A DNA stretch of 64,000 nucleotides, taken from the NCBI GenBank assembly GCA_013329055.1, contig DUKY01000011.1:16096-80095 (forward strand). Direction: 5' to 3'. Shown one piece after another: positions 1,631-24,298 of the stretch (position 1 is its first letter; every line of letters starts with the position of its first letter). The notes under the pieces were generated by a model. The model was not told the DNA's origin. It made no database searches and worked only from the letters and a program-made list of their open reading frames with translations. The stretch comes from Nanobdellota archaeon (lineage in GTDB: Archaea > Nanobdellota > Nanobdellia > Pacearchaeales > GW2011-AR1). The position numbers and the translations under genes are program-made.

Positions 1631-3418
1631 TTAATTTCTTTTTTCATCTAATAATTCACTTGTTGAATTTTTAGATTCTTCATAATGACTTATTCCTTCC
1701 TGAATTACTTTTGTAATTTCTTTAATATCCCTTGCAAAAATATCCAAATTATTTTTGGAGTCAATGAATGAATTTAATAAATATTCTTCAATTTTTGTTG
1801 CTCCTGTTTTTCCTTGCGAATCTAAACCTAAATTAAATAATATAATTGGTAATTCTCCAATTACTAATCCTACGCAACACATTTTATTTATAATTAAATC
1901 AACTACATATTCTTCCATTGTGTCTTTTGTCGCAAGGCTGTAAATATTCATGTCTTTTTCCTGACCGATTCTGTCTAATCTTCCGATTCTTTGTTCAACT
2001 GACATTGGATTCCATGGCAAGTCATAGTTAATCAATGTATAACAAAATTGCAAGTTAAGTCCTTCGGCTCCTGTGTCTGTACTTATTAAAATTTGAGAAT
2101 TTTCTTTAAATTCTTTAATCTTTTCAGATTTTTCTTCACGAGTTAATCCTCCCATAAATTCTGTAATTTTAATATTCTTAGGGATTTTTTCTATCATATA
2201 TTTTAATGTTATCGGATGTTTTGTATAAATTAGTATTTTTGCTTTTGGGTCTTCTTTTAATGTTTTGTCAATAATTTCTATTAATTTTTCCATCTTGGAA
2301 TCTTTTTTTAATTCTTTATAATCCTGTAAAATTTCGTTTGCAAAGTTTCTTGTTTTTCTATGATATTTTTCATCATTTGCAATTCGTTCTAAACTTTCCA
2401 TTGCTGATTTTGATGAACTTGTTATTTTTGGTAATAAAGCGAAAAGAATTAATCTTGCATTTATTTCTCTTCCGCTGCATGCAAAATATTTTTCTTTTAA
2501 TAAAGAACAAATTTTATTATAAATTTTTTTTTCTTCGTCTGTTTGATTTATAGCAACAATTCTTGGAATTCTTTTTTTATAATTTATTCCTGTTTCATAT
2601 CTTCTTCTTCTTACCATTACTTCATCAAGTTTATTTTTTAGTTCTTTAGGATTTAATGGATATCTTTTATTTCCCTGATTAAGAAATTTTTTTCTAAATT
2701 CTTTTATTGTCCCTAAATGTCCTTTTTTTAATAGATGTAATAAATTGTATAACTCAATTAAATCATTTTGAAAAGGTGTTGCTGTAAGAAGTAAAAATCT
2801 TTTTTTTTGCAGTTTATCGACGAATCTCCATCGAACTGTATTTTTTTCTTTGAGTTTATGGGCTTCATCAACCATTACTAAATCCCATGAAATATTATGA
2901 ATTTCTTTGTATCTGAATTCTTTTGATTCTTTATCATAATTTTTTAATCTGTCCATTGAAGCTATTCCAAATGTGATGTTATCAAGGTCTGATTCATTTT
3001 CAATAATTTTAAAATCCAGTTCAAATTTTTCTTTTAATTCTGCAACCCATTGGTCTACTAATGACGGAGGTGTTAAAATTAAGACTTTTTTTACAAATCC
3101 TCTCATAATACATTCTTTTAAGACCAACCCTGCGGTAATTGTTTTTCCAAGTCCTACTTCGTCGGCTAAAAGTGCTGAGCCATTAAAATCTCTTAGTATG
3201 TTTATTGCTCCGTCAATTTGATATTGTAATTTATACGATAAATTTTTTTTAATTGATTCATAAGAAATTAATTCTGTTATTTGTGAGCCTTCTGAAACTT
3301 TATCTGCTTCTACTCGTAAATCCAGTAAATTTGATGAATCAAATTGTTTATTTTCTAATTTTTCAAATAATGAAAATTCTTCATTAGAAAATGATTCGTT
3401 TATTATAATTTCTACCAT
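1631..3418 (-). CDS. SNF2/RAD54-family helicase
   Basis: Motifs LADEVGLGKT (I), MVDEAHKLK (II, DEAH), LLLTATPFQNDL (III), STDTGAEGLNLQ and QRIGRLDRIGQ (VI). Confidence 0.85.
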   Translation of the reverse strand: MVEIIINESFSNEEFSLFEKLENKQFDSSNLLDLRVEADKVSEGSQITELISYESIKKNLSYKLQYQIDGAINILRDFNGSALLADEVGLGKTITAGLVLKECIMRGFVKKVLILTPPSLVDQWVAELKEKFELDFKIIENESDLDNITFGIASMDRLKNYDKESKEFRYKEIHNISWDLVMVDEAHKLKEKNTVRWRFVDKLQKKRFLLLTATPFQNDLIELYNLLHLLKKGHLGTIKEFRKKFLNQGNKRYPLNPKELKNKLDEVMVRRRRYETGINYKKRIPRIVAINQTDEEKKIYNKICSLLKEKYFACSGREINARLILFALLPKITSSSKSAMESLERIANDEKYHRKTRNFANEILQDYKELKKDSKMEKLIEIIDKTLKEDPKAKILIYTKHPITLKYMIEKIPKNIKITEFMGGLTREEKSEKIKEFKENSQILISTDTGAEGLNLQFCYTLINYDLPWNPMSVEQRIGRLDRIGQEKDMNIYSLATKDTMEEYVVDLIINKMCCVGLVIGELPIILFNLGLDSQGKTGATKIEEYLLNSFIDSKNNLDIFARDIKEITKVIQEGISHYEESKNSTSELLDEKRN

Positions 3419-3522
3419 CTTTTATTAAACCTAAAATTGAAGTTGTTTTTTAAGGATTATGGATGTTTAGAAGAAGAAAACATAAAATAGAATGGGGATG
3501 ATTATTTTTTATGCTTGTGATT

Positions 3523-4971
3523 TTATACTAACTTTTCAAGTTCTTCAAAACCTTCTAAAAGTTCTTTAACTTCTTTCTTGGCTTCTTTTATTATTTCCTT
3601 ACTATTTCGATGAATTACTTCTTCGTGCTTTTCTTTTCTATATTTGTTAATTGATAAATCAAAGTCGTTAGCCTTTATTTCATCAATTGAAACAAAAAAG
3701 GATTTTTTAGAAATATCTTTATTATCTTCCTTTTTTCTTTTTTCAAATCTTTCTAAAATATCTGGTATATCGTTTTCTTTTATCTCGTTTCTCTTATCGT
3801 CTAAACTATAACCGTCCGCTTCCATATCGTAAAACCAAACTTTCTCTGTTGGTTCCCCTTTTGTAAAATAAAGAACTGCTGTGGAAACCCCTGCGTAAGG
3901 TTTGAATATCCCTGAAGGCATAGATATAACAGCATCAAGACGGCACTTTTCTAATAAAAGTTTTTTTATGGATTTATGTGCATTAGAGTTACCGAATAAA
4001 ACACCTTCTGGAACAATTACAATGCATCTTCCTCCCACGGAAAGAGAATTATACATAAGTTCTAAGAAAAGTAATTCTGTTTTACTTGTGCTTATAGTTA
4101 GTTCATCTGATTTCTCACTTTCATTTATGGATCCTTTAAATGGTGGATTTGCTAAGATTAAATCATAAATTCCATTCTCGTTATATCTTTTTGATAAAGT
4201 ATCTTCTCCAACAATCTTTGGATTAGTTATTCCGTGCATCATTAAGTTCATGACTGCAATTCTAACCATAGTCCTATCGATATCATATCCATATAGAGAT
4301 TCTTCATCAAGAATTTTCTTCTTTTGAGGAGTTAGAGTGCTTACTCCATTCTTTTGATTTGTCCTTAAAATATATTCATAGGCATTAACCAAGAAACCCG
4401 CAGTTCCACAGGCGGGATCTAAGATTCTATCTCCAAATTCAGGTCTTGCTAAATCAACCATCATTCTAATTATATGTCTTGGAGTTCTAAACTGCCCGTT
4501 TTTTCCTGCTGATTGTAGCTCTGATAAAAGATACTCGTATATATCCCCTTGAGTATCCTGATTTTGTTCTTTAATATGTAAATCATTAATTATATTTACT
4601 GCTTCAATCAAAAGAGACGCTGTTGGAAGAGAAAAACTTGCATCTTTCATATATTTAGCATAAGAAGAATTTGCTTCTCCTAAATTTCTCATAAAAGGAA
4701 AGACAACATCTCTGACATGAGCTAAGATTTTATCGGAAGAATATTCACTCCAAACAGACCACCTGCAATTTTCGTGCCCTATAAAAACAGATTTATATTT
4801 GACCCCCTTAAGAACTGCATTTTGTTCATCTAAAATATCTTTATCTTCCATTTTCTTCATGAAAATTAAATAAGATATTTGTTCTATTGCTTGAAGGGGG
4901 TTACTAATTCCTCCACTCCAAAATTTATCCCATAACTTTCTTATCTTTGATTTTAGTTCCGTGTGTAACAT
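3523..4971 (-). CDS. hsdM: type I restriction-modification N6-adenine DNA methyltransferase subunit
   Basis: SAM-binding motif DPACGTAGFL and catalytic motif NPPF (LANPPFKGS). The N-terminal HsdM-like helical region begins LWDKFWSGGISNPLQAIEQISYLIF. Confidence 0.9.
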   Translation of the reverse strand: MLHTELKSKIRKLWDKFWSGGISNPLQAIEQISYLIFMKKMEDKDILDEQNAVLKGVKYKSVFIGHENCRWSVWSEYSSDKILAHVRDVVFPFMRNLGEANSSYAKYMKDASFSLPTASLLIEAVNIINDLHIKEQNQDTQGDIYEYLLSELQSAGKNGQFRTPRHIIRMMVDLARPEFGDRILDPACGTAGFLVNAYEYILRTNQKNGVSTLTPQKKKILDEESLYGYDIDRTMVRIAVMNLMMHGITNPKIVGEDTLSKRYNENGIYDLILANPPFKGSINESEKSDELTISTSKTELLFLELMYNSLSVGGRCIVIVPEGVLFGNSNAHKSIKKLLLEKCRLDAVISMPSGIFKPYAGVSTAVLYFTKGEPTEKVWFYDMEADGYSLDDKRNEIKENDIPDILERFEKRKKEDNKDISKKSFFVSIDEIKANDFDLSINKYRKEKHEEVIHRNSKEIIKEAKKEVKELLEGFEELEKLV

Positions 4972-4974
4972 GTT

Positions 4975-6387
4975 TTATTTAAAAACCTCCCAATGTCCTC
5001 TACCACCAGTTTGAGGACCTATTCTCTTAATTTTTCCTTCTTGCTTCAATATGTCTATATCTCTCTTTATAGTCTTTTCATTGGCTTTTAGTTGAGACGA
5101 TATCTCAGATATTGCAACTTTATTATTACTTTTTATCATTGCAAGAATATCTTCTCTTCGCTTATCGGGGACATTATCGGGGACATTATCGGGGACATTA
5201 TCCCACTTAGTCTTTAGAGGAAACTCTATTTTATAGAAGGTAATCTCATTCTCAACAATAGGCTCAATTTTATAATAAGACTTCCAGCCATTAAACATCT
5301 TATCAAAACCATAGCCTGCATTTTCAGCAAGTTTGAGTATTCTAAATATTTTTATTAGAATAGGATTTCTCGGAAGAGTAAGTTCTTGTTTTCTTAAAAC
5401 CTCGACAGTAGCTGGCAAACTTCCAGGATTCATAAATTCAAGTCTATCTGAGAATACCCTTACTCTGGGCTTCATTGTGCCAAAATAGTCTGAATGTGCT
5501 AGAAGATTTACTAATGCTTCCCTTATTGCCAAAACTTGAGGTTGATTTTCATCTCTAAAAGCTCCTTTTGTTTTAAATGGAATGTCTATTCTTGTCAGAA
5601 GTCTTTCAAAGATACTAAAGAAGTAGTTGTAAAGATTCTTTTGTAATGGCATTCTATAGGTATATCTTTCAGGAGCATCTGAATAAGATGTCCCCCTTAT
5701 TTCTAAATAATCAATCATAAAATCAGAAAATACCTTACCTATTGAATCTTCATTTCCAAACATTAAAAGTCCCGCAATAGTTACTTTGCCATCAATTGTA
5801 ACTCTTAATTTTTCAAATAATTCTGCTTCGGAAAGATCGCCGTAAGGATTAGCAGAATCAAGATTTTTTATGTAATTCCTAAATCTATCTAGTGTTTCTT
5901 TGTCTAAGTCTTTTAATTTAAATTTTGTTGTTTCTTTGTCTTTAGTTCCAAATGCCGAGTCTCTAAATAATGCATTAAGTTCTTCATAAGTCGCTCTTTG
6001 ATCTCCACTACCTGTTCTTATAAAAGTATTTTTGGGATTATCATAAAAAATAGGCTTGCTCTCTGCAACAGGTATATAAAAAGCAAGAACTGTTTTACTA
6101 TCGAAATTATACTTTTTACATTTAACTTCTAATTTCTTATTAAACTTCTGACCATTTCTTAAGACCCCTATAAAATCTTGTTCTACTTTTTCAGGATTTG
6201 AAACTCCAAGGATAGTGTATTCTTTTCCTTCTTTCTTTACTCCAAAGACAAGCCAGCCTCCAGCAGTATTTGAAAAAGCACTTACAGTCTCCCAGCTATT
6301 TTTTGGAACTTCAGATTTTGCTTCTTTAACCTCAAAGTCTTCCCATTCAATATCCTCTAATTTTTTTATTAATTCTTGTTTGTTCAT
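4975..6387 (-). CDS. AlbA_2/Schlafen-like DNA-binding protein with C-terminal winged-HTH
   Basis: N-terminal EWEDFEVKEAKSE...SAFSNTAGGWLVFGV is typical of the AlbA_2 domain. C-terminal DeoR-like HTH (ISEISSQLKANEKTIKRDIDILKQEGKI). Genes of this kind are frequent passengers in type I R-M loci. Confidence 0.65.
   Translation of the reverse strand: MNKQELIKKLEDIEWEDFEVKEAKSEVPKNSWETVSAFSNTAGGWLVFGVKKEGKEYTILGVSNPEKVEQDFIGVLRNGQKFNKKLEVKCKKYNFDSKTVLAFYIPVAESKPIFYDNPKNTFIRTGSGDQRATYEELNALFRDSAFGTKDKETTKFKLKDLDKETLDRFRNYIKNLDSANPYGDLSEAELFEKLRVTIDGKVTIAGLLMFGNEDSIGKVFSDFMIDYLEIRGTSYSDAPERYTYRMPLQKNLYNYFFSIFERLLTRIDIPFKTKGAFRDENQPQVLAIREALVNLLAHSDYFGTMKPRVRVFSDRLEFMNPGSLPATVEVLRKQELTLPRNPILIKIFRILKLAENAGYGFDKMFNGWKSYYKIEPIVENEITFYKIEFPLKTKWDNVPDNVPDNVPDKRREDILAMIKSNNKVAISEISSQLKANEKTIKRDIDILKQEGKIKRIGPQTGGRGHWEVFK
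5163..5202. repeat. 12-nt tandem repeat x3.3 inside a CDS, encoding (DNVP)3
   Basis: tatcggggacat is repeated back to back. It translates to DNVPDNVPDNVPD on the minus strand. Confidence 0.9.
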
Positions 6388-6390
6388 TTT

Positions 6391-6669
6391 TCACTTCTTA
6401 ATTCTTTCAGTTTTATATTTCTTATATTCTCGTAACCTTAATTTATTTATTTTCAGATTTTTTAACTCTTCCCATAATTTTTTATTTATCTTTTTGTAAT
6501 CAATAAAGATTCTCCCTCTTTCACCACCAAATTCACAATAACAATAAGGCATTCCTCCTTGAGAAGCTTCTTCTAATTGTTTACTATAAGTTGATAGCTC
6601 TCCACATGACGGACAGATGTAATATTTTTCTTTGAAATTCTTTGAAAGGTTTTTTGCTTTTTTATTCAT
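6391..6669 (-). CDS. small hypothetical protein, possible zinc-ribbon
   Basis: 92-aa ORF with CPSCG ... CYCEFGG. 4-nt overlap with the upstream ORF. Confidence 0.4.
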   Translation of the reverse strand: MNKKAKNLSKNFKEKYYICPSCGELSTYSKQLEEASQGGMPYCYCEFGGERGRIFIDYKKINKKLWEELKNLKINKLRLREYKKYKTERIKK

Positions 6670-7076
6670 TTTTTTGATCCAATCCTTTTATTTAAACAGA
6701 ATAATCCTTTTTCTCTAACTATTAATTCATTATCATTAACTTTTATTGTTTTATTTGATAAAATATCTTTATACTCTTCTCCCCTATTTTTTAAAAAATA
6801 TTTACATCCCTCTTTTAGAAAATGGGTTGAAATAAAATAAACATTATTCTTTGATTGATCACCAGAGCAAATATAGATTTCCATTCTAAAATCACGATTA
6901 TAATCTTTTAAAAAAATAGTTTCATTATCAATTAATATTCCGGATTCATTGATTAAAAAATTACTGATTCTTTCGGAATCACAAAGAGTATAAGATACCA
7001 CACTAACAGAGATTATGCTTACCCCAATAAAAAACCCAATAATTAGTAAAATTATTTTTTTCATATTATAATTCAC
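6666..7076 (-). CDS. membrane-anchored hypothetical protein
   Basis: 136-aa ORF with an N-terminal hydrophobic helix (KKIILLIIGFFIGVSIISVSVV). Overlaps the hsdS stop. Confidence 0.4.
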   Translation of the reverse strand: MNYNMKKIILLIIGFFIGVSIISVSVVSYTLCDSERISNFLINESGILIDNETIFLKDYNRDFRMEIYICSGDQSKNNVYFISTHFLKEGCKYFLKNRGEEYKDILSNKTIKVNDNELIVREKGLFCLNKRIGSKK

Positions 7077-8235
7077 CCCTAAATGCTTTTTGCATTAGCG
7101 AATCAAATAATTCTTCGGAGCTTTGTTTAGTTTTCTTTTGCTTTTCTTTCATCTTTTCAACTTTCTCGACGATGTTTGCGAATTTTTGTTGGAGGGGAAG
7201 TGGCGGGAGGGGGATTTTAAAATTATCAACAAAATATTTTGGCAATCTTCTAAGCCCCCCAGTTCCAGTTAATTGTTTTTCGCCTAATTTAATAAAAGTT
7301 TCACTGGAAATAACATAGTAAACAAGTTCTGGCAAAATATTTTTTGTTGGACGTAATACGTGATATTCGCTTGAGCCAAACCCAATTCTATTTTTTAAGT
7401 TCTTACATATTCCAGATTTACCATTTTCAAAGCAAGGAGTTACCTTAGCCAATAAAATATCTCCTTCCATAAAGTAAGTATATCCCTTATACACTTCCTT
7501 TATCCTTCGTATTTCTTTGGGTTTAAAATGAATACTGTGTTCTGAAATATCCGCCATTGGAACAAAAGAAACTTCTAAATTATTATCTTCTTTCCCAATT
7601 TCAGATTTTTTAGGATTGATTTCACAAATATCCCCTAGCTTAACTTTTTCAAAATCTTTCTTCAAAAACATCTCATTAAAAATAGCCTTAAGATATTCAT
7701 CAAGTAATTCACTGGCTTTCTTACTTTTTTCTTTCTGCTTTTCTGCTTTTTCTAAAATTGCGACGATTTGTTTTTGTGTTTCGAGGTCTGGTTTTCCTTC
7801 GGGGTTTTCAAGGGTCGGGGGGAGATAAGGGAGGAGGATTTTTTTCTCTTTAAGAAATTTATAATGTCTGCTATATCCTGCCGAAGAAATCTTTAATTTT
7901 TTTAGGGCGTAATAAAAATATTTTTGGGAAATATTTTCTTTTGGAACTAATATTTTAACTCCATCTGCACCAAGAGCAAATGGGAAATTAATAAATTTTA
8001 AAATTCTTGTATGGTCTCCAAAGATAATCACAGGTAATTTTTCATCATAAACTTTTGATTTGTCATTAGTATATCCTGCAATAAATTCTTCTCCTTGATC
8101 AATTATGGGATATTTGCCCTTTTTCAAAAAATCCTTTCCTTGAATTTTAAGATTATTGCTTGAAGCTTCTTTTTCAAGACAATCTAAGAAATTGATGTCT
8201 CTCCATTCAATTTTATTGGTTTGTTGGATTTTCAT
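7066..8235 (-). CDS. hsdS: type I restriction-modification specificity subunit
   Basis: Two target-recognition halves separated by conserved helical spacers (LPPLPLQQKFANIVEKVEKMKEKQKK; EKQKEKSKKASELLDEYLKAIFNEMF). Size and context match HsdS. Confidence 0.85.
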   Translation of the reverse strand: MKIQQTNKIEWRDINFLDCLEKEASSNNLKIQGKDFLKKGKYPIIDQGEEFIAGYTNDKSKVYDEKLPVIIFGDHTRILKFINFPFALGADGVKILVPKENISQKYFYYALKKLKISSAGYSRHYKFLKEKKILLPYLPPTLENPEGKPDLETQKQIVAILEKAEKQKEKSKKASELLDEYLKAIFNEMFLKKDFEKVKLGDICEINPKKSEIGKEDNNLEVSFVPMADISEHSIHFKPKEIRRIKEVYKGYTYFMEGDILLAKVTPCFENGKSGICKNLKNRIGFGSSEYHVLRPTKNILPELVYYVISSETFIKLGEKQLTGTGGLRRLPKYFVDNFKIPLPPLPLQQKFANIVEKVEKMKEKQKKTKQSSEELFDSLMQKAFRGEL

Positions 8236-8701
8236 TTTTTGATAGATGCTTCTTAAATTTTTTTAATTCACTTATAGTCCTTTTAGAAATATAAGGAGTA
8301 AAATTAATTTTCAGATGACCTTGACTAAATTTAGCCCTTAGGGTTACTCCATTATTATGCCCTCCAATCTCAAGATATTTCTTTTTTGTGATTTTGTAAT
8401 AATTTTTAAAATTATTATCTATGAAATAAGATACTAAAACGATTTCAGGGTCTATATCCTTCATGGTATCTTCATTTAGATCAAGCATCTTTGGGTGAGG
8501 GGACCACCATGCCATTTCCAAACCTAATAATTTTACTATAAATTTATTATATAAAAAATAAACTCCGATAAATACAATAAATATTATAATAATGATAAAT
8601 CCCTTTGGCAAAAGAGTTATCATTAAAGCAAATAATATACCAATAAGAAAGAAAAAGAATCCCATAATAGCCGATTTTTGAATACTGTTTAATTTTTTCA
8701 T
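8213..8701 (-). CDS. hypothetical two-TM membrane protein
   Basis: 162-aa ORF with two N-terminal hydrophobic helices. 23-nt overlap with the hsdS start. Confidence 0.4.
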   Translation of the reverse strand: MKKLNSIQKSAIMGFFFFLIGILFALMITLLPKGFIIIIIFIVFIGVYFLYNKFIVKLLGLEMAWWSPHPKMLDLNEDTMKDIDPEIVLVSYFIDNNFKNYYKITKKKYLEIGGHNNGVTLRAKFSQGHLKINFTPYISKRTISELKKFKKHLSKNENPTNQ

Positions 8702-8847
8702 TTTCTTTTTTTAGCATAAAAACTTACTTTTACTTTTTGAGTTTTTCGAACTTTAAAACAAACTTTTCTTCCATCTTTTGTTTTAAAACAAATATTTTTC
8801 TTTATTGGTTTTTTAGCCATAAAACTAACTCTTTTTCTTTGTGCCAT
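8698..8847 (-). CDS. possible 49-aa very basic peptide (below the ORF-track cut-off)
   Basis: Hand translation: MAQRKRVSFMAKKPIKKNICFKTKDGRKVCFKVRKTQKVKVSFYAKKRK. Its ATG abuts the TAA of the upstream ORF, and its TGA overlaps the ATG of the downstream ORF (ATGA). Confidence 0.3.
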   Translation of the reverse strand: MAQRKRVSFMAKKPIKKNICFKTKDGRKVCFKVRKTQKVKVSFYAKKRK

Positions 8848-9390: not shown

Positions 9391-9394
9391 TTTT

Positions 9395-11566
9395 TTAAAA
9401 TATAATCTCCTTTAATTTTTTAATCTCTTCTACAGTAGGCTGATTGACTGCATAGGGGTTTAATATAATATCCCCGACTAAGATAAATTTAACCTTGCCA
9501 TCTAAATTTACTAATTGTTTTTTGAAATAAATTAATCCACTAACAATTTGTTTATCTTTGGCAATTGCATCATCTTTTCTTATTAGTTCGGGCTTTGTTG
9601 TTTCTCCAGTTTCATTATTCCTATAAAATTGGTAAGTCAATGTTCCAAAAAAACTATTTGCTATCATGTATTCATCTATAACCGAAGAACTTGCATCAAC
9701 GACAATAAAATACAAATCATTTCTAATACCCTTTTTCATTTCTTCAAAAGATTCCAGAGAATAAAATTGACTTGATTTTTCTTTGAGAATTTTATCAACC
9801 TTATTATTTATCGTAACTGCACCGTTATCTAAATGTAAACTTCTATCTCCTTTAGAGTTTTTAATCTCAAAAAAAACATTCTTATTATTTAATTTAATAT
9901 ATAAATCTGCATTATTGTTTTTATTCGGAATCTTTGGTTCAAGAATTGAATTTAAGTTCTCTTCCAAAAAAATAAATTTGTTTGTAAAGATAATCTCGCT
10001 AAAATCATCCCAAAACTTATCTTCATTTTCAAGACCCCTAATTAATGACGTGCGATTATCTTTATTCCGTTCATTAGAAATATTTTTTGAGTAACTAAGA
10101 AAATTCTCTATTTCATTCAAATATGCCTTTTTTAGTTCTTTATCTCTTTGTTGGCTACCTAACCAAAATAAAGGACTATATCTTTTTTTGTTATATAACT
10201 CTTTTAATTTATGTTTAATTATCTTGTCTAATTCGGAAAATTCTTTTAAAGATTCATCAATTTCATTAAATTCAAAATCAATAATTCTAAATCTTAATTG
10301 TTCCAATAATCCATTAATATAATTAATTAGTTCATCAAAATTATTTTTGTTAACCAATTCATCAAATGTTTTTTTATTTTCATTAATAAAATCTTTATTC
10401 TCGGATATTTCTTCTATCTTTTTAGCTAAGGGGAAAAATAAATTAAACGCCTTCTTTTTATCCTGGTCTTTGTAGATTATTCCAATAATTTTACTAACAA
10501 GTTCATAATAGAGTTTAGGATCCTTGTCAAAAATCTTTTTTTCCATCAATTCTCTTGAAGCAAATTCAACATTTTGAGAAGCCATTTTTTCAAAAATCCT
10601 TGGAAAGATATACTTATAATCTAACTTCTCAGTTTTTACTTTTTCAAAATTATCTAAAAAATAATCTATAAACTTCTCATTCTTTTTTACCAACTCTTGA
10701 ATAGCCCAATCAAAATGCTGAACTTTGAATTCTAAATCTTTATTTATCCAATAGATAAATAGCTTAGATATTTTTTCAATTTCGTCAGGGTAATCTATCA
10801 ACGGATACATCATATCGTTGATAATGGTTTCTTCTGAATTCTTATATAATTCTATTAATTCCAAAATGTGTTCTTTATCTAATTTAATTCCAATTGTTTT
10901 CCAAAATAGTAATCTATTCACTGAAATAATTTTTCTTTCGGCAAGTGATTTTATTTTCTCATAAAAATAACTTTTCTCGTTTTTATAGAATGACAAATAA
11001 AGATTCATAAGTTCGGTTAATATCCTCTCATCATGAGATAACATTGTCTTATTAAGACACTCTTTAACTTCAGTAGGTAAAATTTCTTTTTCATATTTTA
11101 CCAAAATTGCTTTAAGAATAGTATTTTTCGTTGGATATTCCAAATTTCTTTTAATTAAATCCTTTAATAATCCTTCATTGTAAAATGAATATCCCCCAAG
11201 TATTAACCCAGAGATTATTTTAAGATCTATATTATTAGATTTATTTTGGATTATATAATATAATTTTATTGCTACTTCTTGCTTTTCTTTTCCAACTTTT
11301 ATTAACATCTCAAAAAAAGGTCCACTTGCCATATCTCCTTTTACTTTTAAAAAGACACTATCTAAATATTCCAGATATTTTTCACTATCAGAAGCTAAAT
11401 CAAATAAGATTTCTATAGATAATTGAAAATAATTCCAAATAGACTCTTTATTTATTTCATCTAATAAGACATATTTGTTTTCTTCAGTTATATCTCCCTT
11501 TATCTTAGAATATTCTTCTTTTTGTTTATCAAATTCAAATCTAAATTGTTTAAATTTTTCAATCAT
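9395..11566 (-). CDS. large helical protein with C-terminal PD-(D/E)xK-like nuclease motif
   Basis: 723-aa ORF. About 500 aa are Lys/Glu/Leu-rich and predicted helical. The C-terminus has FSEII...ADLYIKLNNKNVFFEIKNSKG (E ... D ... ExK spacing). Confidence 0.35.
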   Translation of the reverse strand: MIEKFKQFRFEFDKQKEEYSKIKGDITEENKYVLLDEINKESIWNYFQLSIEILFDLASDSEKYLEYLDSVFLKVKGDMASGPFFEMLIKVGKEKQEVAIKLYYIIQNKSNNIDLKIISGLILGGYSFYNEGLLKDLIKRNLEYPTKNTILKAILVKYEKEILPTEVKECLNKTMLSHDERILTELMNLYLSFYKNEKSYFYEKIKSLAERKIISVNRLLFWKTIGIKLDKEHILELIELYKNSEETIINDMMYPLIDYPDEIEKISKLFIYWINKDLEFKVQHFDWAIQELVKKNEKFIDYFLDNFEKVKTEKLDYKYIFPRIFEKMASQNVEFASRELMEKKIFDKDPKLYYELVSKIIGIIYKDQDKKKAFNLFFPLAKKIEEISENKDFINENKKTFDELVNKNNFDELINYINGLLEQLRFRIIDFEFNEIDESLKEFSELDKIIKHKLKELYNKKRYSPLFWLGSQQRDKELKKAYLNEIENFLSYSKNISNERNKDNRTSLIRGLENEDKFWDDFSEIIFTNKFIFLEENLNSILEPKIPNKNNNADLYIKLNNKNVFFEIKNSKGDRSLHLDNGAVTINNKVDKILKEKSSQFYSLESFEEMKKGIRNDLYFIVVDASSSVIDEYMIANSFFGTLTYQFYRNNETGETTKPELIRKDDAIAKDKQIVSGLIYFKKQLVNLDGKVKFILVGDIILNPYAVNQPTVEEIKKLKEIIF

Positions 11567-12227
11567 CTTTTTTTACCTCATAATTATCTGATTTGTGTAT
11601 ATCAAATTTATCTGAATATATTCTATTTTTTAATTTTATTTTGAATTTTCTTATCTTTCCCTCTTCTATACAGAAAATTTCTACCGGGAATAAAGCAGGA
11701 TGTCCCGTCATTGCATCATGTTTTCCTAAAAAATCAAAACATTCAAAAAAATTTTCAAAAATTTCTTTTTCATAATCTGTCACCAAAAATAGTTTCTCTT
11801 GACATTGTCCAATAAATTCAGAATTTGGGGAGCCAATCATTGCAAAATTAACCTCTTCATTATGTTGTTCCTTAAGATTTACAAATTTTTTATAAGTTAA
11901 ATTGGTAATATCTATCACGAGAATTCCAGACCCCATATTCAAATATTTAATATGTTGCTCCGTCTCTATAGATGGTGCATAATTCTCATTACTCATTGCA
12001 TTTTCAATCCTTGCTTTAAAATCTTCAAGATTAATACAGCTAATGGATTGATTATACACATGATTGATTATTAAATCACTCCCCGATCCAGCAAATAAAA
12101 ATTTCCCAGCAATTAAGGGAAATATCTTTGTTTTTGAATAAGTAGATACATCATAAGCATGTTGAGTATCTCCTGCCAAGAACAATCTTTCTCCATTTTT
12201 TGTTTTAAACAATATTATTGAAGTCAT
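11559..12227 (-). CDS. proteasome-beta/HslV-like Ntn hydrolase (Thr1 after Met)
   Basis: MTSIILFKTKNGERLFLAGDTQ...KTKIFPL...FAGSGSD aligns by eye with the genuine PsmB in this window (TTILGIVCKNGIVMAGDNR...EKVYQI...FSGCGSATEA). Thr1, the Asp of AGD, the Lys and the GSG block are all present. Confidence 0.55.
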   Translation of the reverse strand: MTSIILFKTKNGERLFLAGDTQHAYDVSTYSKTKIFPLIAGKFLFAGSGSDLIINHVYNQSISCINLEDFKARIENAMSNENYAPSIETEQHIKYLNMGSGILVIDITNLTYKKFVNLKEQHNEEVNFAMIGSPNSEFIGQCQEKLFLVTDYEKEIFENFFECFDFLGKHDAMTGHPALFPVEIFCIEEGKIRKFKIKLKNRIYSDKFDIHKSDNYEVKKDD

Positions 12228-12358
12228 CCCCTTCCACCCCCAATCAAAAACTTCTTATCATAAGAAAGTTCCTCTTTATCTAACAGCTTTTCAACTATCT
12301 CTTTGTAAGTCTTAACTTTCTTTTTCAATGTAATCATAGCCCAATCATCTCCAAACAT
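12224..12358 (-). CDS. possible 44-aa ORF (below the ORF-track cut-off)
   Basis: Hand translation: MFGDDWAMITLKKKVKTYKEIVEKLLDKEELSYDKKFLIGGGRG. Its TGA overlaps the ATG of the Ntn-hydrolase ORF. Confidence 0.2.
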   Translation of the reverse strand: MFGDDWAMITLKKKVKTYKEIVEKLLDKEELSYDKKFLIGGGRG

Positions 12359-12527
12359 ATAACTTTTCTCCATTAAATCCGAAGACCAAAACATTTTTAT
12401 ATTCCATATTCCTGTATTTTATTGTAAGCGGACCGGTTCCGTAAAAGGTTTGATTATTCAAACTGACCAACGCTTTATGCGTGTGATTGGTTGGGAAGAC
12501 CGCTAATCGCTTACATTTTATTTTCAT
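12345..12527 (-). CDS. doubtful 60-aa ORF overlapping a GC-rich structured patch
   Basis: Listed in the ORF track, with no motif. It overlaps both neighbouring ORFs and may be spurious or a frameshifted fragment. Confidence 0.2.
   Translation of the reverse strand: MKIKCKRLAVFPTNHTHKALVSLNNQTFYGTGPLTIKYRNMEYKNVLVFGFNGEKLYVWR
12424..12514. other. GC-enriched 91-nt element closed by a 7-bp stem
   Basis: GTAAGCG (12424-12430) pairs with CGCTTAC (12508-12514). Internal hairpins are TTTGA-TTAT-TCAAA and CCAACGC-TTTAT-GCG..TTGG. By hand count about 46% G+C in a much more AT-rich context. Confidence 0.3.
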
Positions 12528-13023
12528 TTAATTCCTCCCAATAATTTTTAATTGAACTAAATGGAACATCAACAATATTTAACTTCTTTCCTCTAATCTG
12601 CCTATTTGTCTTTAATGCTCTTCTTCGGTATATTCTCGCATAATTATCCGCTAAAGAACCAATATTTCTTCCAAGTCTTTTCCTGAACTCAGAGATATTA
12701 ATAATTTCAAAAGAATAATTTTTTAACAAATAATCCAAAATATTTTTAACAACTTGAAAATCTTCATCATTACAAATTATCAAGGTTTTAAGATCTTTTT
12801 CAACATTTTTAACCAAAAGATAAATACAAATGGCATATAATTTTGCAGAATCCTCATAAATATTTTTTTTAAATAATCTTCTCTTAATTAACTCTAGTAA
12901 ATTTCCCTTCAAAGCACATCCATAATTAACTTTTGTTTTTGAGCCTACAAGAGCAATACCTATAGTTTTCTTCCAATAGATTCTTCCACTCATATCAACA
13001 TGAAAATCATCTTTTTCTATCAT
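12511..13023 (-). CDS. hypothetical protein
   Basis: 170-aa ORF with no recognisable motif. Its start overlaps the stop of the RHH-like ORF (ATGA). Confidence 0.45.
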   Translation of the reverse strand: MIEKDDFHVDMSGRIYWKKTIGIALVGSKTKVNYGCALKGNLLELIKRRLFKKNIYEDSAKLYAICIYLLVKNVEKDLKTLIICNDEDFQVVKNILDYLLKNYSFEIINISEFRKRLGRNIGSLADNYARIYRRRALKTNRQIRGKKLNIVDVPFSSIKNYWEELNENKM

Positions 13024-13193
13024 TCCTCCTCCCCCAATCCAGTTTCTTTTCTTATCATCTCTCTAAGTTTTGTATTTACAGTTTTGCCTTCCTGATCACA
13101 AAGTTTTTTGAAAAAAAGAAATTCACTTTTATACAATCTTGTAGAAACAATTTTCCTCTCTTCACCGCTTAAATCATGATTTTTTAAAACCAT
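13020..13193 (-). CDS. 57-aa ribbon-helix-helix (CopG-like) protein (below the ORF-track cut-off)
   Basis: Hand translation: MVLKNHDLSGEERKIVSTRLYKSEFLFFKKLCDQEGKTVNTKLREMIRKETGLGEEE. The pattern is a beta-strand (KIVSTRL) followed by two helices, as in RHH regulators or antitoxins. Confidence 0.45.
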   Translation of the reverse strand: MVLKNHDLSGEERKIVSTRLYKSEFLFFKKLCDQEGKTVNTKLREMIRKETGLGEEE

Positions 13194-13253
13194 AGAAAAA
13201 ATAAAAATAAGAACTATTTAAATATTTAGGTAGTTACCTGTATACACCTTTTT

Positions 13254-13279
13254 GTTCATAAATTGTATAATTTATGAAC
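13254..13279. promoter_or_regulatory. perfect 11-bp inverted repeat upstream of the RHH ORF (candidate operator)
   Basis: GTTCATAAATT-GTAT-AATTTATGAAC, about 60 nt upstream of the RHH start. An AT-rich TATA-like TTTAAATATTT lies at 13217-13227. Confidence 0.35.
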
Positions 13280-13394
13280 TATTTCCACTTTTCCATTTTT
13301 CCACAAGTATTATATACCATAACCATCTATATATTTTATCTGGGTAAGTCCTAGGGAGGTTTGTGTACCGGAATGGTGCACCTTGTCTTAATCT

Positions 13395-14033
13395 CTAGGG
13401 TCCGGATAACTTTTCAAACACTTCTTTCTTTATTACTATTTTATCCTTTATTGTGTTCATAAAATTGGAATCTTTGAATTCATAATTTCTAAAAATTGCC
13501 CATGAAATAAAATCTAAAACCTGCAAACAACCTTCTTTCTGAGAATCCTCGTGTCTTATGTCTATTTTACAATTAGAATTATTCTGAACTAAGCTAGATC
13601 TAATATAATTATCAAAATCCTCCCTCAAGGAACGATTGGTCTTGGACTTATCAACAATTAAACAAACATGATTATTATCCAAAGAGCATTCGTTTAAAAT
13701 AAGATTTGAAATGTAATTGTACAACTTATCTTTTTTGTTTTTTAGATATTCATAAACTTTGGATTTTTCAAGAATTATAACAAATACTTCTGAGTTTGTT
13801 TCCACAAATCTTTTTAAGATCTCTGCTCTTATTTTGTCTGTACTGTTATTTCCCTTTAGTTCAGGATACTTTTTCATTTTCTTTTTGATTATTTTTTGTC
13901 TGACTTTTTTCATTATTCTTCTTAAAGAATAAACTTCTTCCTCATCACAAGATAATAGAGCTATAACAAAATATTTGCTTGAAGTTGATTTAAATCCAAG
14001 TTCTCCACTCTCATCAAGAAAGATATATTTCAT
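13395..14033 (-). CDS. DUF3800-family protein
   Basis: N-terminal YIFLDESGELGF is characteristic of DUF3800. The ORF starts 1 nt after the hsdR stop. Confidence 0.65.
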   Translation of the reverse strand: MKYIFLDESGELGFKSTSSKYFVIALLSCDEEEVYSLRRIMKKVRQKIIKKKMKKYPELKGNNSTDKIRAEILKRFVETNSEVFVIILEKSKVYEYLKNKKDKLYNYISNLILNECSLDNNHVCLIVDKSKTNRSLREDFDNYIRSSLVQNNSNCKIDIRHEDSQKEGCLQVLDFISWAIFRNYEFKDSNFMNTIKDKIVIKKEVFEKLSGP

Positions 14034-14034
14034 C

Positions 14035-16782
14035 TTATTTCCACTTCAATTCATTGCATTTTTGAACAATTGTCTCCAATTGTTCCTTACTAAAAGCATC
14101 TAAAGGTCTTCCTTCTGCCAAAGGATGTTCTGCAAAATTCTTTAATTCAATATGTTTCGCCCGAACAAAAACCTGCTCTAACATCCTTAAAAATTTCAAT
14201 TGTTGAGAATTATAATGTTCATTTTTATCCATAACAAATTTATCAAATTCCCATTTAATCATTTCTTGGGGATCAGGTAATCCCTTTATTTCTAATAATC
14301 CTCTCAAGAATAAAATAAAATCTTGACTCTGTTGAATGTTATCAATAGTCCATCTAGGATTTAAGCCTCTTAAATTTTTTTCAATTTCCAATAGTTCTTT
14401 AGATGTGACTCCATCTCCATTTTTAATTTTTTCTAATAGCTTATTACTGTTAACAAAATAAGAATAGTTTTCACCTTCTTTAACTTTCATTATTTCTTTT
14501 TTAACATCAATAACTATATCTGGAGCATTGATTTTTAACATATTTTTTCTTTCTTGTTCGTAGAATATCATTAAAGGAGAAATTTCTCTAACTAAGAAAT
14601 CAACATCTTCAAAAGTTATTTCTTCCCAAAATTGCTCTTTTTGGATTCTTACTAAATCATTCCTTTTCTGTTTTACAGCATCTAAGTTCTTATCCCAAAT
14701 AGAATCTACCCTTTCTACAACAAACTCTTCAATCTTAGCAATTTTATTTTTATTTCCGGTTTTTATGCAATCAAAAAGTTTAACGCACTGAGAAATGAAA
14801 CCATAAACTTTTGCATTTTCAGAAGGAGTATAAATCAAAAGAGGAGCTATTTCATTTCTTAATTCCTCAACATGTTCTCGCAAATCAAATTTAGAAGAAA
14901 CAACTTTTGTTATAATATTTTTCTTCTCAATAACCAATGGAGATTCAACATCAATTTCTTTAATTGTATCACGAATTTGTTTTTCAACAATTTTTCTCTC
15001 CTTCTCATCTAAATTTTTCTCCAAAGCATCAACTTGTTCTAAAAATATTCTTGTTTTAGCGTCAGTTCCAGAAGATTTTTGTTTAAAAATGTTTAATTTA
15101 TGTTGCATCACATTAGACCAATCTCCAAATTTAAAATCCAATATCAAAAAATCTTCTTTTATGTGTTGTCCATCTTTATTTGTTGGCAACCATTCTTTAT
15201 TTTCACAGGCAGATAAACTCCTTGTTCCTCTTCCTAACATCTGCCAAAATCTAATTGAAGACATTACGGGTTTAACAAAAACTAAATTCATTACTTCAGG
15301 AACATCAACCCCAGTATCTAAAACTCCAACAGATAAAGCAATTCTTGGGCTATCTCTTTTCTCAAATCTTTTAACCTCATCCATGTAACGAGATTTATCA
15401 GAAGTAATAACTTTTACATCCTTTGCTAAAGAGGGGTAAAGTTTTTGAAATAATTTTTCTAAAGATTCCGCATGTTTTACACTTGCACAGAAGAAAATAC
15501 TTTTACATGGCCTATTATCATCTGATTTATAACACCTATCAACAAATTCTCTAATGATTAATTCGTTAGTTTTTTCATCTGTAAAAAATCTTTCAAATTT
15601 AGAACCTGGTGTTTGAAATTTCTCTGGGTCTTCCTCTTGTTGCTTTAATGCTTGTTGTAATTCTTTATTCAATTTTTTTCCTTCAATTCCTAATGAAAGA
15701 ACACTTGTTTCAATAATTTCTGCTACATAAGGAGCTAAAATTTTGTCTCTTACTGCAGAATCATAATCATATCTAAAGGTAGGTTTTCCATTATCACAAT
15801 TAAAGAGATCAAAAGTATTTCTTGTTTCTTCTGAAGAAGGAGTGGCAGTTAATCCAACTTTTAAAGCATCAAAATATTTGAAGATATCATTATTTTTATC
15901 ATAGTAAGAACGGTGTGCTTCATCAAAAATAATTAAGTCAAATGCTCCAGGACCAAATTTTTCATAAAATTTCCCTCTTGGTTTTTGAGGAGACATTAAA
16001 GTTTGAATTGTAGAAACATAAAATCTTGCACTACTTGAATATCCTTCTTCATTCAACTCACAAACTGGAGATTCAGGAAAAAATTTCTTAAATCCTTTTT
16101 CTTTTGCCTGATTTCCTAGAGAAATTCTATCAACAACAAATAGGACTTTTTGTACATATTCTGCTTTTATTAAACAATCTATTAAAGCCATTGCTACTCT
16201 TGTTTTTCCAGTTCCAGTAGCCATATTAATAAGAGCCTCTCTATGTCCATCAGAGAAATGTTCTAATACTGTTTTAACTGCCTCAACACACATCTTTCTG
16301 TTTAAAATAGTAGAACTCACCTTAACATTTGCTGGGTCTTTTCTTTGTTTCATTAAGCTAATTATTCTATGCAAATCTTGTTGAGAAAAAGGCAAGAGAA
16401 TTTTTCTTCTTCTATCTAAGTCATCAACATAATACCAATTTGTTCCGTTAGTTAAGAATATAGGGATTTTAATTTTAATTTGTTTTTCAATATCATCTCT
16501 ATAAGTTCGTGCTTGAATTTCCCCTTTTTCAATGTCAATAGAAGTTTTTTTTGCTTCTACAATTGCAAGGGGACTTCTATCTTCATCTAATAATAGATAA
16601 TCAATAAAATGATCCACTCCTTTTTCTATTCCAGCTTCACGACCAATATATTCTTTAGTTTTAAATTTGGATTTAACTGGATTAATTTCTTCTTTGACAT
16701 AATGTCCTTTAACTTTCCATCCTGTCCTTTCTAAAATTGGATCTATCAAGTTTTTTCTTGTTTGTTCCTCAGTAAGCCCCAT
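14035..16782 (-). CDS. hsdR: type I restriction enzyme R subunit (nuclease-helicase)
   Basis: N-terminal PD-(D/E)xK (DYLLLDED...AIVEAKK), Walker A MATGTGKT, DEAH box IFDEAHRS, helicase motif VI QMLGRGTR, and a long C-terminal helical domain as in EcoEI-type HsdR. Confidence 0.85.
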   Translation of the reverse strand: MGLTEEQTRKNLIDPILERTGWKVKGHYVKEEINPVKSKFKTKEYIGREAGIEKGVDHFIDYLLLDEDRSPLAIVEAKKTSIDIEKGEIQARTYRDDIEKQIKIKIPIFLTNGTNWYYVDDLDRRRKILLPFSQQDLHRIISLMKQRKDPANVKVSSTILNRKMCVEAVKTVLEHFSDGHREALINMATGTGKTRVAMALIDCLIKAEYVQKVLFVVDRISLGNQAKEKGFKKFFPESPVCELNEEGYSSSARFYVSTIQTLMSPQKPRGKFYEKFGPGAFDLIIFDEAHRSYYDKNNDIFKYFDALKVGLTATPSSEETRNTFDLFNCDNGKPTFRYDYDSAVRDKILAPYVAEIIETSVLSLGIEGKKLNKELQQALKQQEEDPEKFQTPGSKFERFFTDEKTNELIIREFVDRCYKSDDNRPCKSIFFCASVKHAESLEKLFQKLYPSLAKDVKVITSDKSRYMDEVKRFEKRDSPRIALSVGVLDTGVDVPEVMNLVFVKPVMSSIRFWQMLGRGTRSLSACENKEWLPTNKDGQHIKEDFLILDFKFGDWSNVMQHKLNIFKQKSSGTDAKTRIFLEQVDALEKNLDEKERKIVEKQIRDTIKEIDVESPLVIEKKNIITKVVSSKFDLREHVEELRNEIAPLLIYTPSENAKVYGFISQCVKLFDCIKTGNKNKIAKIEEFVVERVDSIWDKNLDAVKQKRNDLVRIQKEQFWEEITFEDVDFLVREISPLMIFYEQERKNMLKINAPDIVIDVKKEIMKVKEGENYSYFVNSNKLLEKIKNGDGVTSKELLEIEKNLRGLNPRWTIDNIQQSQDFILFLRGLLEIKGLPDPQEMIKWEFDKFVMDKNEHYNSQQLKFLRMLEQVFVRAKHIELKNFAEHPLAEGRPLDAFSKEQLETIVQKCNELKWK

Positions 16783-16907
16783 GTTAAACTAATGAAACAC
16801 TACCTTAAAAAGTTATTCTCAAATAAACTTTATTGTTGATATAAATCCCTGTGAGATGGACTTCATGTCCATTCGAGTTTGTAAAAAAAATAAGAAAATT
16901 TGAAAAT

Positions 16908-18394: not shown

Positions 18395-18436
18395 AGTCAT
18401 CAAAACACTTATAATTCCATTTGATTATTAATTATA

Positions 18437-24186: not shown

Positions 24187-24250
24187 ATCATAAACATTAT
24201 TTTAATAATTTATAAATCTTTCGTAATGTTATTCCTTAATAATAGTTACA

Positions 24251-24295
24251 ATATTAAAACTTCATCAATTTGCACTTTTTACAGGTATTATTTCT
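24251..24295. repeat. relic copy of the 3' end of the PP-loop ATPase gene
   Basis: 45 nt with 2 mismatches versus 25205-25249 (the last codons ...CKKCKLMKF* of ORF 25208-26029). Confidence 0.85.
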
Positions 24296-24298
24296 TGA

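Follow-up and report, generated by a model that had tools for sequence, protein, structure and literature searches.

A type I restriction-modification locus of a DPANN archaeon that probably carries variable embedded cargo around a ribbon-helix-helix core gene

The window, a stretch of 64,000 nucleotides (nt) from a Nanobdellota archaeon (contig DUKY01000011.1), contains at positions 1631-16782 genes for the restriction (hsdR), specificity (hsdS) and methyltransferase (hsdM) subunits of a type I restriction-modification (R-M) system, with many other genes between them. We found that the locus is in all likelihood one type I R-M system carrying variable embedded cargo. Its core genes would be, in order, hsdR, a gene for a ribbon-helix-helix (RHH) regulator (p57), hsdS and hsdM, and the remaining genes would be passengers that accumulated in three gaps, here termed slots A, B and C.

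To compare this arrangement with others, 80 genome loci encoding HsdM relatives were searched with all window proteins and analyzed by longest-open-reading-frame (ORF) calling and all-against-all clustering. We found the order hsdR, hsdS, hsdM on a single strand in 53 loci, which come from Pacearchaeota, Woesearchaeota, Nanoarchaeota, Micrarchaeota, Methanosarcina, Methanobacteriaceae, Nitrososphaeria and two bacterial bins. The HsdR orthologues upstream of the hsdM relatives are 34-90% identical, and HsdR and HsdM identities co-vary (Spearman 0.92, Pearson 0.96, n = 43 loci). Hence, given the shared order and the tracking identities, HsdR is no orphan and the three subunits belong to one system, as the original prediction had supposed.

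The comparison also located the cargo. Nine of the 53 loci are compact and hold none, and extra genes elsewhere fall into three gaps: slot A, from the hsdR stop to the RHH promoter; slot B, between the RHH gene and hsdS; and slot C, between hsdS and hsdM. In the window, slot A holds a DUF3800 cassette, slot B eight genes, and slot C the genes for p136, p92 and an AlbA_2 winged-helix-turn-helix (wHTH) protein. Of the 269 slot ORFs that reach 45 amino acids (aa), 247 (92%) point the same way as the hsd genes. A minimum of 60 aa gives 230 co-oriented cargo ORFs, which at the level of BLAST similarity form 168 families, 132 with a single member. The median number of passengers is five in DPANN loci vs one in other lineages (Mann-Whitney p = 1e-4). 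The proposal that cargo was inserted repeatedly into an R-M scaffold thus holds, on the compact loci, on the diversity of the cargo and on homology that breaks at the boundaries of the anchor genes; the related genomes supplied the uninterrupted arrangement and the insertion points, and with so many singleton families the passengers are not core genes in a fixed interrupted order. The description of the locus as unusually fragmented is right when it is set against a textbook operon but not among its DPANN relatives, where embedding is documented and five embedded genes are the median.

Gene content was taken from an ORF listing, with family scans against Pfam, NCBIfam and PADLOC v2. The ORF run from 16782 down to 1631 lies unbroken on the minus strand, as had been stated, and extends by one gene beyond hsdR, to 17270. 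The features, all on the minus strand, are these:

to 17270, minus: signal-peptide protein, 120 aa, upstream of hsdR
14035..16782, minus: hsdR, restriction/translocase subunit, 915 aa (HSDR_N, ResIII, SWI2_SNF2, Helicase_C, EcoEI_R_C; PADLOC REase_I, 302 bits)
13395..14033, minus: DUF3800 gene, slot A passenger (PF12686, 60.5 bits)
13338..13403, minus: conserved 66-nt non-coding element, overlapping the DUF3800 stop
13279..13300, minus: relic of the hsdR 3' end (AAAAATGGAAAAGTGGAAATAG), with an 11-nt exact repeat of the hsdR end
13254..13279, minus: hairpin GTTCATAAATT-ATAC-AATTTATGAAC, a palindrome with 11-nt arms read from the sequence
13215..13249, minus: operator palindrome and TATA box, putative promoter of the RHH-hsdS-hsdM unit
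13020..13193, minus: p57, RHH regulator by family profile, fourth core gene, short form
12511-13023, minus: p170, slot B passenger, no family match
12345-12527, minus: p60, small overlapping ORF, slot B passenger, no family match
12224-12394, minus: p56, small overlapping ORF, slot B passenger, no family match
11559..12227, minus: p222, proteasome-beta/HslV-like N-terminal-nucleophile (Ntn) peptidase homologue by fold match and motifs, slot B
9395..11566, minus: p723, predicted ARM/HEAT-like solenoid with C-terminal alpha/beta domain (AlphaFold2 (AF2) model), slot B
8848-9390, minus: DUF4145 protein, slot B passenger (PF13643, 31.8 bits)
8698-8847, minus: p49, basic 49-aa ORF, slot B passenger
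8213-8701, minus: protein with two transmembrane (TM) segments (2-TM), 162 aa, slot B passenger
7066..8235, minus: hsdS, specificity subunit, 389 aa (Methylase_S in two stretches; PADLOC Specificity_I, 237 bits, full length)
6666-7076, minus: p136, TM protein, 136 aa, slot C passenger
6391-6669, minus: p92, zinc-ribbon protein, 92 aa, slot C passenger
4975-6387, minus: AlbA_2/Schlafen + HATPase_c_4 + wHTH protein (Pfam), slot C passenger
3523..4971, minus: hsdM, methyltransferase subunit, 482 aa (HsdM_N and N6_Mtase, 236.7 bits; PADLOC MTase_I, 583 bits)
1631..3418, minus: SNF2-family helicase (SNF2-rel_dom and Helicase_C)

Leaving p57 out, 12 embedded ORFs lie between hsdR and hsdM, all on the minus strand, and island genes are coupled by overlaps or by gaps of 0-4 nt. 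The close spacings first read from the letters were found again: the DUF3800 gene begins 1 nt past the hsdR stop, the AlbA_2 gene ends 3 nt before the hsdM ATG, the 162-aa 2-TM gene overlaps hsdS by 23 nt, and the two small ORFs lie at 6391-6669 and 6666-7076. The span from hsdR to hsdM is 9064 nt, the longest of the 53 loci, and the window is the most heavily loaded locus of its clade; a metagenomic locus, L088, is loaded similarly, with seven genes between hsdR and hsdS (one of them likely a long-form RHH gene) and six between hsdS and hsdM. The window locus is 100% identical in two NCBI assemblies and one Joint Genome Institute (JGI) metagenome, and hence is not an assembly artefact. Its HsdM is identical to a protein of 'archaeon GW2011_AR13', which places the source in the GW2011_AR13 population of DPANN archaea. 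The G+C content of the island is 24-33%, with no clear contrast to the flanks. A tRNA scan and Rfam at gathering thresholds gave no match over the whole window, and there is no tRNA-type attachment site.

Compared by blastn with about 20 relatives, the window shows homology in discrete blocks, with ends at 14028-14037, 13003-13020, 7056-7069 and 4971-4990. The blocks comprise hsdR down to 14028-14037, the promoter and RHH gene from 13253/13291 to 13003/13020, two parts of hsdS (7650-7797 and 7060-7224), and hsdM from 4971-4990 down to 3500-3548. Between the blocks the sequence is unrelated among loci, save for individual shared cassettes. L005 shares the p723 gene (80% identical nt), L013 and L015 share p57-p170-p60, the L013 homology stopping within p60, L015 also shares p92, and L026 shares the AlbA_2 gene. 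As passengers, p92 recurs in slot C of L015, L027 and L097, and the AlbA_2 protein in slot C of L026 and slot B of L037 and L088. The DUF4145, p49 and 2-TM genes have no homologue in any of the 80 related loci searched, and since the p723 gene abuts hsdS directly in L005, L088 and L089, these three genes are a further insertion. In L006, L009, L010, L011, L013 and L032, the last ~30 nt before the hsdM ATG read CTAAAAAGGAGGCTTCACAACAATAAAC behind unrelated cargo genes; because unrelated cargo ends in these identical ~30 nt, the anchor block includes the hsdM ribosome-binding region. The differing passengers of these six loci also share a C-terminal tail. As judged from the alignments, the mosaic is evidence that cargo has been gained, lost and exchanged repeatedly while the anchors stayed fixed.

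The hsd genes themselves appear complete. HsdR keeps its PD-(D/E)xK nuclease motif (IVEAK) and its SF2 helicase motifs (GTGKT, DEAH, TAT and QMLGRGTR); HsdM, by its domains a gamma-class N6-adenine methyltransferase, keeps NPPF at residue 275; and HsdS has two target-recognition domains by its Methylase_S match, with the PADLOC Specificity_I match spanning residues 2-389 of its 389. The nearest solved structures are type I subunits (3H1T for HsdR; 5YBB and 3UFB for HsdM). At E ≤ 1e-30 HsdM has at least 8000 archaeal homologues, 74-100% identical among the 120 listed, and a GTDB scan extends its relatives down to 55% identity. The DNA of hsdS is conserved among relatives in its central and C-terminal regions only, a pattern that, by its alignment, is the usual shuffling of target-recognition domains; the second half of the window gene is 88% identical to that of L006. 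Two tandem hsdM paralogues follow hsdS in each of two Woesearchaeota loci (L070, 8505-11483; L073, 2496-5355) and are 43-44% and 59-60% identical to the window HsdM.

Regarding its type, HsdR has its best NCBIfam match in the EcoAI/FtnUII family NF046051, at 238.7 bits vs a cut-off of 550, which rules out formal membership in type IB (EcoAI/EcoEI); neither HsdR nor HsdM reaches an NCBIfam equivalog cut-off. By its domains, the system is better described as IB-like, that is, related to type IB without being a member. It resembles type IB in the HSDR_N and EcoEI_R_C domains of HsdR and in having hsdR first, putatively with its own promoter, but differs in its order R-S-M instead of R-M-S and in its extra RHH gene. 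A TATA-like box, AATAACTTTTTAAGG, lies at 16806..16820 on the minus strand, ~30 nt upstream of the hsdR ATG, and the motif AATAACTTTTTATA stands at the same distance from hsdR in the clade relatives L007, L015, L017 and L013. No operator palindrome was found at this upstream box. The conserved spacing suggests that the box is a separate hsdR promoter, in which case the locus would comprise two transcription units, hsdR from its own TATA box and the RHH gene, hsdS and hsdM from a palindrome/TATA promoter. The passengers share the orientation of the hsd genes and leave little space between them, so that the R-M promoters presumably drive their expression too.

The 57-aa ORF at 13020-13193 had been counted among the passengers; this was mistaken, as clustering placed a p57-family gene in the hsdR-hsdS interval of at least 36 of the 53 loci. 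Some loci (L046, L047, L070, L071, L073) consist of just the four genes hsdR, RHH, hsdS and hsdM. Most family members are 120-139 aa long, with a conserved N-terminal part and an additional C-terminal domain, and the clade of the window keeps only the N-terminal 57-60 aa. The best Protein Data Bank (PDB) matches of the family profile are AvtR (E = 0.002), ParG, NikR, SvtR and DinJ, and among 26 members Pfam RHH_1 is matched by 7 and DUF6290 by 11; the 57-aa window protein alone has no Pfam match. By its family profile, p57 is thus a ribbon-helix-helix regulator, and by its recurrence a conserved fourth core gene.

In nearly every locus a palindrome stands upstream of the RHH gene, its center 50-60 nt from the ATG, with an archaeal TATA box (TTTAAATA or TTTATATA) behind it at about -30. 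Of 39 RHH-family genes, 19 have a perfect palindrome (arms of at least 6 nt, -42 to -72) with a TATA box upstream; for the other genes of these loci the figure is 27 of 575, an enrichment of about ten-fold. The palindrome is lineage-specific: the window clade has AGGTGTATACACCT; Methanosarcina, Methanobrevibacter and some Woesearchaeota have GTCAACCnnGGTTGAC; and other lineages have GGTCTAC...GTAGACC, GGTTAACC...GGTTAACC or others. The operator of L017 is a related variant, AGGTGTATACAGGT. In the window, the operator reads AGGTGTATAC-AGGTAACT-ACCT, followed by the TATA box TTTAAATA (13215..13249). These conserved pairs of gene and site suggest that p57 binds the palindrome and autoregulates the RHH-hsdS-hsdM unit, as an R-M controller protein would. 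The hairpin GTTCATAAATT-ATAC-AATTTATGAAC follows the original hsdR end, with an imperfect copy in L005, and is a candidate terminator.

Small regulators of R-M genes are known in two other forms. The C proteins of type II systems are likewise small autoregulatory DNA-binding proteins with a palindromic operator at an R-M promoter (for p57 a predicted likeness), but they are Xre-type helix-turn-helix (HTH) proteins that usually head a restriction gene, whereas p57 is of the RHH type and heads type I specificity and methylase genes; membership of p57 in the C-protein family was ruled out, as its family matches RHH profiles and not HTH_3 or Xre. RptR is a small repressor that heads a gammaproteobacterial type I R-M system with embedded DarTG2, the RRDM island of enteropathogenic Escherichia coli (EPEC) (PMC12255303). 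In both cases a tiny DNA-binding protein, autoregulating in EPEC and putatively so here, heads a type I unit with embedded genes, and regulator and palindromic site are conserved jointly. However, RptR, a gammaproteobacterial protein, is bZIP-like with four helices and binds to TAGCTA repeats that cover the -10 box, and p57 is an RHH protein encoded between hsdR and hsdS with an archaeal TATA box nearby, so that the two are analogous, not homologous.

The slot A passenger matches the DUF3800 profile PF12686 over positions 1-148 of 149 (cut-off 21 bits). DUF3800 is reported to have an RNase H-like fold (PMC7736814, PMC10910872). It is known to occur with type VII retrons and with a branch of Cas12a2, and Weinberg et al. 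(2017, PMC5737381) described the eleven unrelated RNA motifs associated with it, DUF3800-I to -XI. In L005, L007, L014 and L032, which have no DUF3800 gene at slot A, the RHH promoter and gene follow hsdR directly, and the insertion was mapped to 13301-14034, beginning 1 nt past the hsdR stop. It comprises the DUF3800 ORF, the 66-nt element, a TATA-like box at ~13309-13316 and a degenerate copy of the hsdR 3' end. This relic end at 13279-13300 marks the right edge, where homology to relatives resumes within the hsdR end of L005. A blastn-short search for further relics of gene ends inside the island was swamped by AT-rich chance matches, and only the hsdR-end repeat at 13280-13290, which is supported independently, stands. 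A 19/21-nt match between 1639-1659 (SNF2 3' end) and 7056-7076 (hsdS stop/p136 start; E = 0.007) is probably due to chance.

A metagenome scan for DUF3800 relatives gave 36 loci, and beyond the window the element was surveyed in L008 and L091-L122. The 66-nt element, GGACCCTAGAGATTAAGACAAGGTGCACCATTCCGGTACACAAACCTCCCTAGGACTTACCCAGAT (62-72 nt depending on the ends chosen), overlaps the DUF3800 stop codon and is nearly invariant in 31 loci (29 metagenome loci, the window and L008), in which the DUF3800 proteins are 53-83% identical. In its stem CCUAGAGA/UCUCUAGG, two pairs covary through compensatory changes; an inner hairpin, GUGCACC/GGUACAC, was dropped since variants break the pairing as often as they keep it. 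Rfam 15 at E ≤ 1 gave no match over 13150-13450, the published DUF3800 RNA motifs included. The element resembles DUF3800-I to -XI in being a conserved non-coding element physically tied to a DUF3800 gene; it differs in overlapping the stop codon, in being conserved mainly in primary sequence and in its single supported stem. About 25 nt downstream of the element there is a conserved TATA box and then TTTCGGTTTG, which together could be a promoter of TATA box and transcription factor B recognition element (BRE) on the opposite strand.

The cassette occupies several positions. It follows hsdR in the window and L060; it follows hsdS in L097/L098, whose HsdM is 96% identical to that of the window over the part of the gene present, and in L102, where it is flanked by two diverged hsdS 3' ends encoding ...SLMQKAFKGGLVR and ...SSLMQKAFRGEL; and in many other loci there is no hsd gene nearby. 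Its start is always one or a few nt past the stop of the preceding gene, or overlaps it. The flanking duplicate is an imperfect copy of the last 25-37 nt of that gene, hsdR in the window (13279-13300 vs 14035-14064) and hsdS in L102 (~1465-1500 vs ~2250-2290). From these junctions, we infer that the DUF3800 cassette inserts at the 3' ends of genes and leaves a duplicate of the target end.

The second module, in slot B, is the p222-p723 pair. The AF2 model of p222 has a predicted local distance difference test (pLDDT) score of 86, and Foldseek gave 618 PDB matches at E < 0.001, all 50 listed being proteasome beta, HslV or Anbu, with template-modeling (TM) scores of 0.56-0.68. Across 16 members the family keeps T2, D20, K34, G49 and the second G of an IGSG motif (G132) invariant, and its profile aligns to HslV from Thr1 (E = 0.06). 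A phmmer search against the PDB gave nothing for p222 or p723, and p222 has no match to Pfam Proteasome, NCBIfam or PADLOC. From the predicted fold and the motifs, p222 is a divergent Ntn-threonine-peptidase homologue. Like the known prokaryotic proteasome homologues (HslV, Anbu, BPH and 22 groups; Fuchs et al. 2021, PMC8665760), it has a proteasome-beta fold, a Thr that follows the initiator Met at the N terminus, and the Asp, Lys and IGSG Gly at canonical positions; unlike them, it escapes the Pfam Proteasome model, lacks an AAA+ partner and has a fixed ARM-repeat partner. In that survey of new proteasome homologues, the gene neighborhoods of the new groups were reported as uninformative (Fuchs et al. 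2021, PMC8665760), whereas p222 adjoins restriction or methyltransferase genes.

The AF2 model of p723 (pLDDT 89.7) predicts an ARM/HEAT-like solenoid from residue 1 to ~500 and a C-terminal alpha/beta domain. A fold search with the whole protein is dominated by the helical solenoid, with importin, beta-catenin and Integrator repeats as best matches. The ~45 clusters of full-length homologues come almost exclusively from DPANN archaea and lack any Pfam domain. The C-terminal domain keeps D554, E567, R575, D624 and K682 invariant; D554 and E567 lie on adjacent predicted strands, and position 569, the Lys of a possible ExK motif, is K in only 13 of 28 sequences and T in 11 of 28, which makes it a non-conserved position. 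The domain may be a PD-(D/E)xK nuclease. A gene of 218-240 aa immediately precedes the p723 gene, overlapping or abutting it, in all eight contexts examined: slot B of type I systems (window, L005, L088, L089), type IIG MmeI-like enzymes (L084, L090), a type III-like SNF2/methylase/Res set (L085/L086) and a methylase cluster with a PDDEXK protein (L087). Across the module the ARM-repeat partner measures 720-765 aa. PADLOC v2 does not include the module. The p723 proteins of the window and L005 are 74% identical, but their small peptidase partners (11559-12227 in the window, 4935-5603 in L005) can hardly be aligned (28% over 56 aa), a discordance that indicates very fast evolution or replacement of the small partner. 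By analogy with PrrC, one may speculate that the pair is a back-up effector triggered when restriction is blocked; an equally speculative analogy, with ClpXP-dependent restriction alleviation, is proteolytic control of the R subunit.

Three other explanations of the locus were weighed against one type I system with variable cargo. The intervening genes might have co-evolved as integral subunits of a larger system with many components that builds on type I parts, as their common orientation and overlaps or 0-4-nt gaps would befit a single operon and as p57 did prove to be a core gene. Yet loci with 78-90% identical hsd genes hold unrelated genes in the same gaps, nine have no intervening cargo, most cargo families (132/168) occur once, and p222-p723 and DUF3800 are also found away from type I systems, which makes this explanation extremely improbable. 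The hsd genes might instead be remnants of a disrupted system, or HsdR an orphan, in a junkyard of decaying mobile DNA; the ~9 kb from the hsdR stop to the hsdM start, the largest among the 53 loci, an operator interrupted by 8 nt, and the sub-cut-off NCBIfam scores of HsdR and HsdM would fit. This is very unlikely, however, since none of the three ORFs is truncated or has lost its motifs, R identity tracks M identity among loci, gene-to-gene couplings are kept and the locus is identical in three independent assemblies.

The third explanation takes the passengers for selfish insertions or ordinary non-defense genes that exploit a tolerated, well-expressed and horizontally mobile operon (a 'genomic sink') and would add nothing to immunity. 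Against the validated and candidate defense families of PADLOC v2, the window passengers give no significant match, the closest being a weak one of the DUF4145 protein to PD-T7-3 (E = 4.7e-5), and p723, p222, p170, p60, p56, p49 and the two TM proteins have no match in PADLOC, NCBIfam or Pfam; several passengers are small TM or basic proteins without a recognizable domain; and the DUF3800 cassette, with its duplicated target ends and its several slots and contexts, looks like a mobile unit. On the other side, sister loci carry an OLD-type ATPase-TOPRIM (L029), UvrD beside a SWIM protein (L004), a 1590-aa nSTAND NTPase (L062), Mrr-TPR (L054), NYN, DUF2283 and Bro-N, of which OLD/TOPRIM, nSTAND, Mrr, NYN and UvrD-SWIM are, by their annotation, domains typical of defense genes; p222-p723 stands beside four kinds of restriction or methyltransferase gene sets; and embedded defense genes have experimental precedents (TgvAB, DarTG2, PrrC, HEC candidates). 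We regard this explanation as possible but on balance unlikely.

Several points weigh against one type I system with cargo, or against parts of that account. The empty PADLOC result is one, and defense or R-M accessory functions of the window passengers, suggested by context, are less certain than a single type I system with cargo. Methylation, restriction and transcription are likewise predicted, R-M activity from intact motifs and context. Cargo turnover would proceed by recombination within the conserved anchor genes, a mechanism read from the mosaic pattern, and the duplicate flanking the DUF3800 cassette fits equally a long target-site duplication and a homology arm (adapter) brought in by recombination. 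Because of the longest-ORF rule, counts of small genes in the related loci are approximate: ORF clustering missed the RHH gene in 17 of the 53 loci, and since tblastn recovered it in L005 and L013, its absence is an ORF-calling artefact in at least two of the 17. Lastly, the 8-nt insertion AGGTAACT splits the window operator at 13228-13249, where AGGTGTATACACCT is perfect in most clade relatives, so that the RHH-controlled promoter may be deregulated and its regulation altered or lost in this strain.

A broader version of the cargo account, which we consider rather unlikely, is that the operon is a dedicated gene-capture platform, loosely integron-like. Cassettes would enter at three fixed junctions directly after the stop codons of anchor genes, be expressed from the R-M promoters (those of slots B and C under RHH control) and be exchanged between lineages together with the anchor genes or through recombination inside them. 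The DUF3800 gene and its 66-nt element would be self-mobile and regenerate the last codons of their target, and the HslV-like peptidase and its ARM partner would be a new R-M-linked effector or a control module for the R subunit.

Interruption of type I operons by accessory genes is already known. Examples are PrrC in EcoprrI, rlo/mlo of Campylobacter jejuni and TgvAB of V. cholerae VPI-2 (PMC11411939 and references therein). As in the window, variable accessory genes lie between hsdR and hsdS and between hsdS and hsdM, and in the known loci some are proven defense effectors; but these loci are bacterial, hold one or two embedded genes and are mostly of the order M-S-R, whereas the window locus is archaeal, has the order R-RHH-S-M and belongs to a type with three slots and up to about twelve passengers. 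A 'guilt by embedding' survey of RefSeq genomes, which admitted no more than three embedded genes to a gap, described such genes in type I R-M, BREX, DISARM and Hma, 96.7% of them co-oriented (Payne et al. 2024, bioRxiv 10.1101/2024.01.29.577857). The cases share nested genes that are mostly co-oriented (92% here), highly diverse and often without a known family, and differ in that the window has eight genes in one gap and an uncultured DPANN source. No window passenger matched the PDC or HEC models in PADLOC v2. New here are the archaeal R-RHH-S-M scaffold with its putative operator, the three slots, how large and diverse the DPANN cargo is, a precise map of the insertions in the window locus and two passenger modules, p222-p723 and the DUF3800 cassette.

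Around the operon, the SNF2 gene does follow hsdM as stated, at 104 nt, with a T-rich stretch and an A/T box in between. SNF2 shows partial matches to BrxHI, DrmD, DpdE and RapA, far under the NCBIfam cut-offs, and is beside hsdM in none of the 80 related loci; hence, it cannot be tied to the R-M system. In 12 DPANN loci a RadC-like JAB-domain gene accompanies the hsd operon (downstream of hsdM in L008, L011, L012, L015, L025-L029, L039 and L066, upstream of hsdR in L013), converging directly on the hsdM 3' end in 8 and lying farther off in the others; it is absent from the window, where SNF2 takes that side. Directly upstream of the island, a divergent plus-strand trio at 17386-19933 codes for a multi-pass membrane protein of 244 aa, a winged-helix protein of the HTH_45 type and a DEAD/DEAH helicase of 498 aa with weak DpdF and PsyrT matches, and may be another defense-type or regulatory unit. 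Two adjacent paralogous phosphoribosyltransferase (PRTase)-domain proteins of 281-282 aa, one with a weak PRTase-CE match, lie beside a PP-loop ATPase at 23338-25144 (minus). The genes farther out are ordinary (PP-loop ATPase, PRTases, P-type ATPase).

Antiviral defense in archaea, notably DPANN, is poorly charted: in a recent archaeal survey nearly a third of genomes were without detectable defense beyond CRISPR and R-M, and R-M was under-represented in DPANN. The three gaps in 53 loci, with ~168 mostly unannotated families, form a 'guilt by embedding' search space for archaeal defense genes, and loci as loaded as the window escape a survey limited to three embedded genes per gap. Two candidates are concrete: the p222-p723 pair, which stands beside restriction or methyltransferase genes, and the DUF3800 cassette, with its near-invariant element and duplicated target ends. 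The RHH protein and its lineage-specific palindrome would be a testable archaeal counterpart of bacterial RptR and C proteins.

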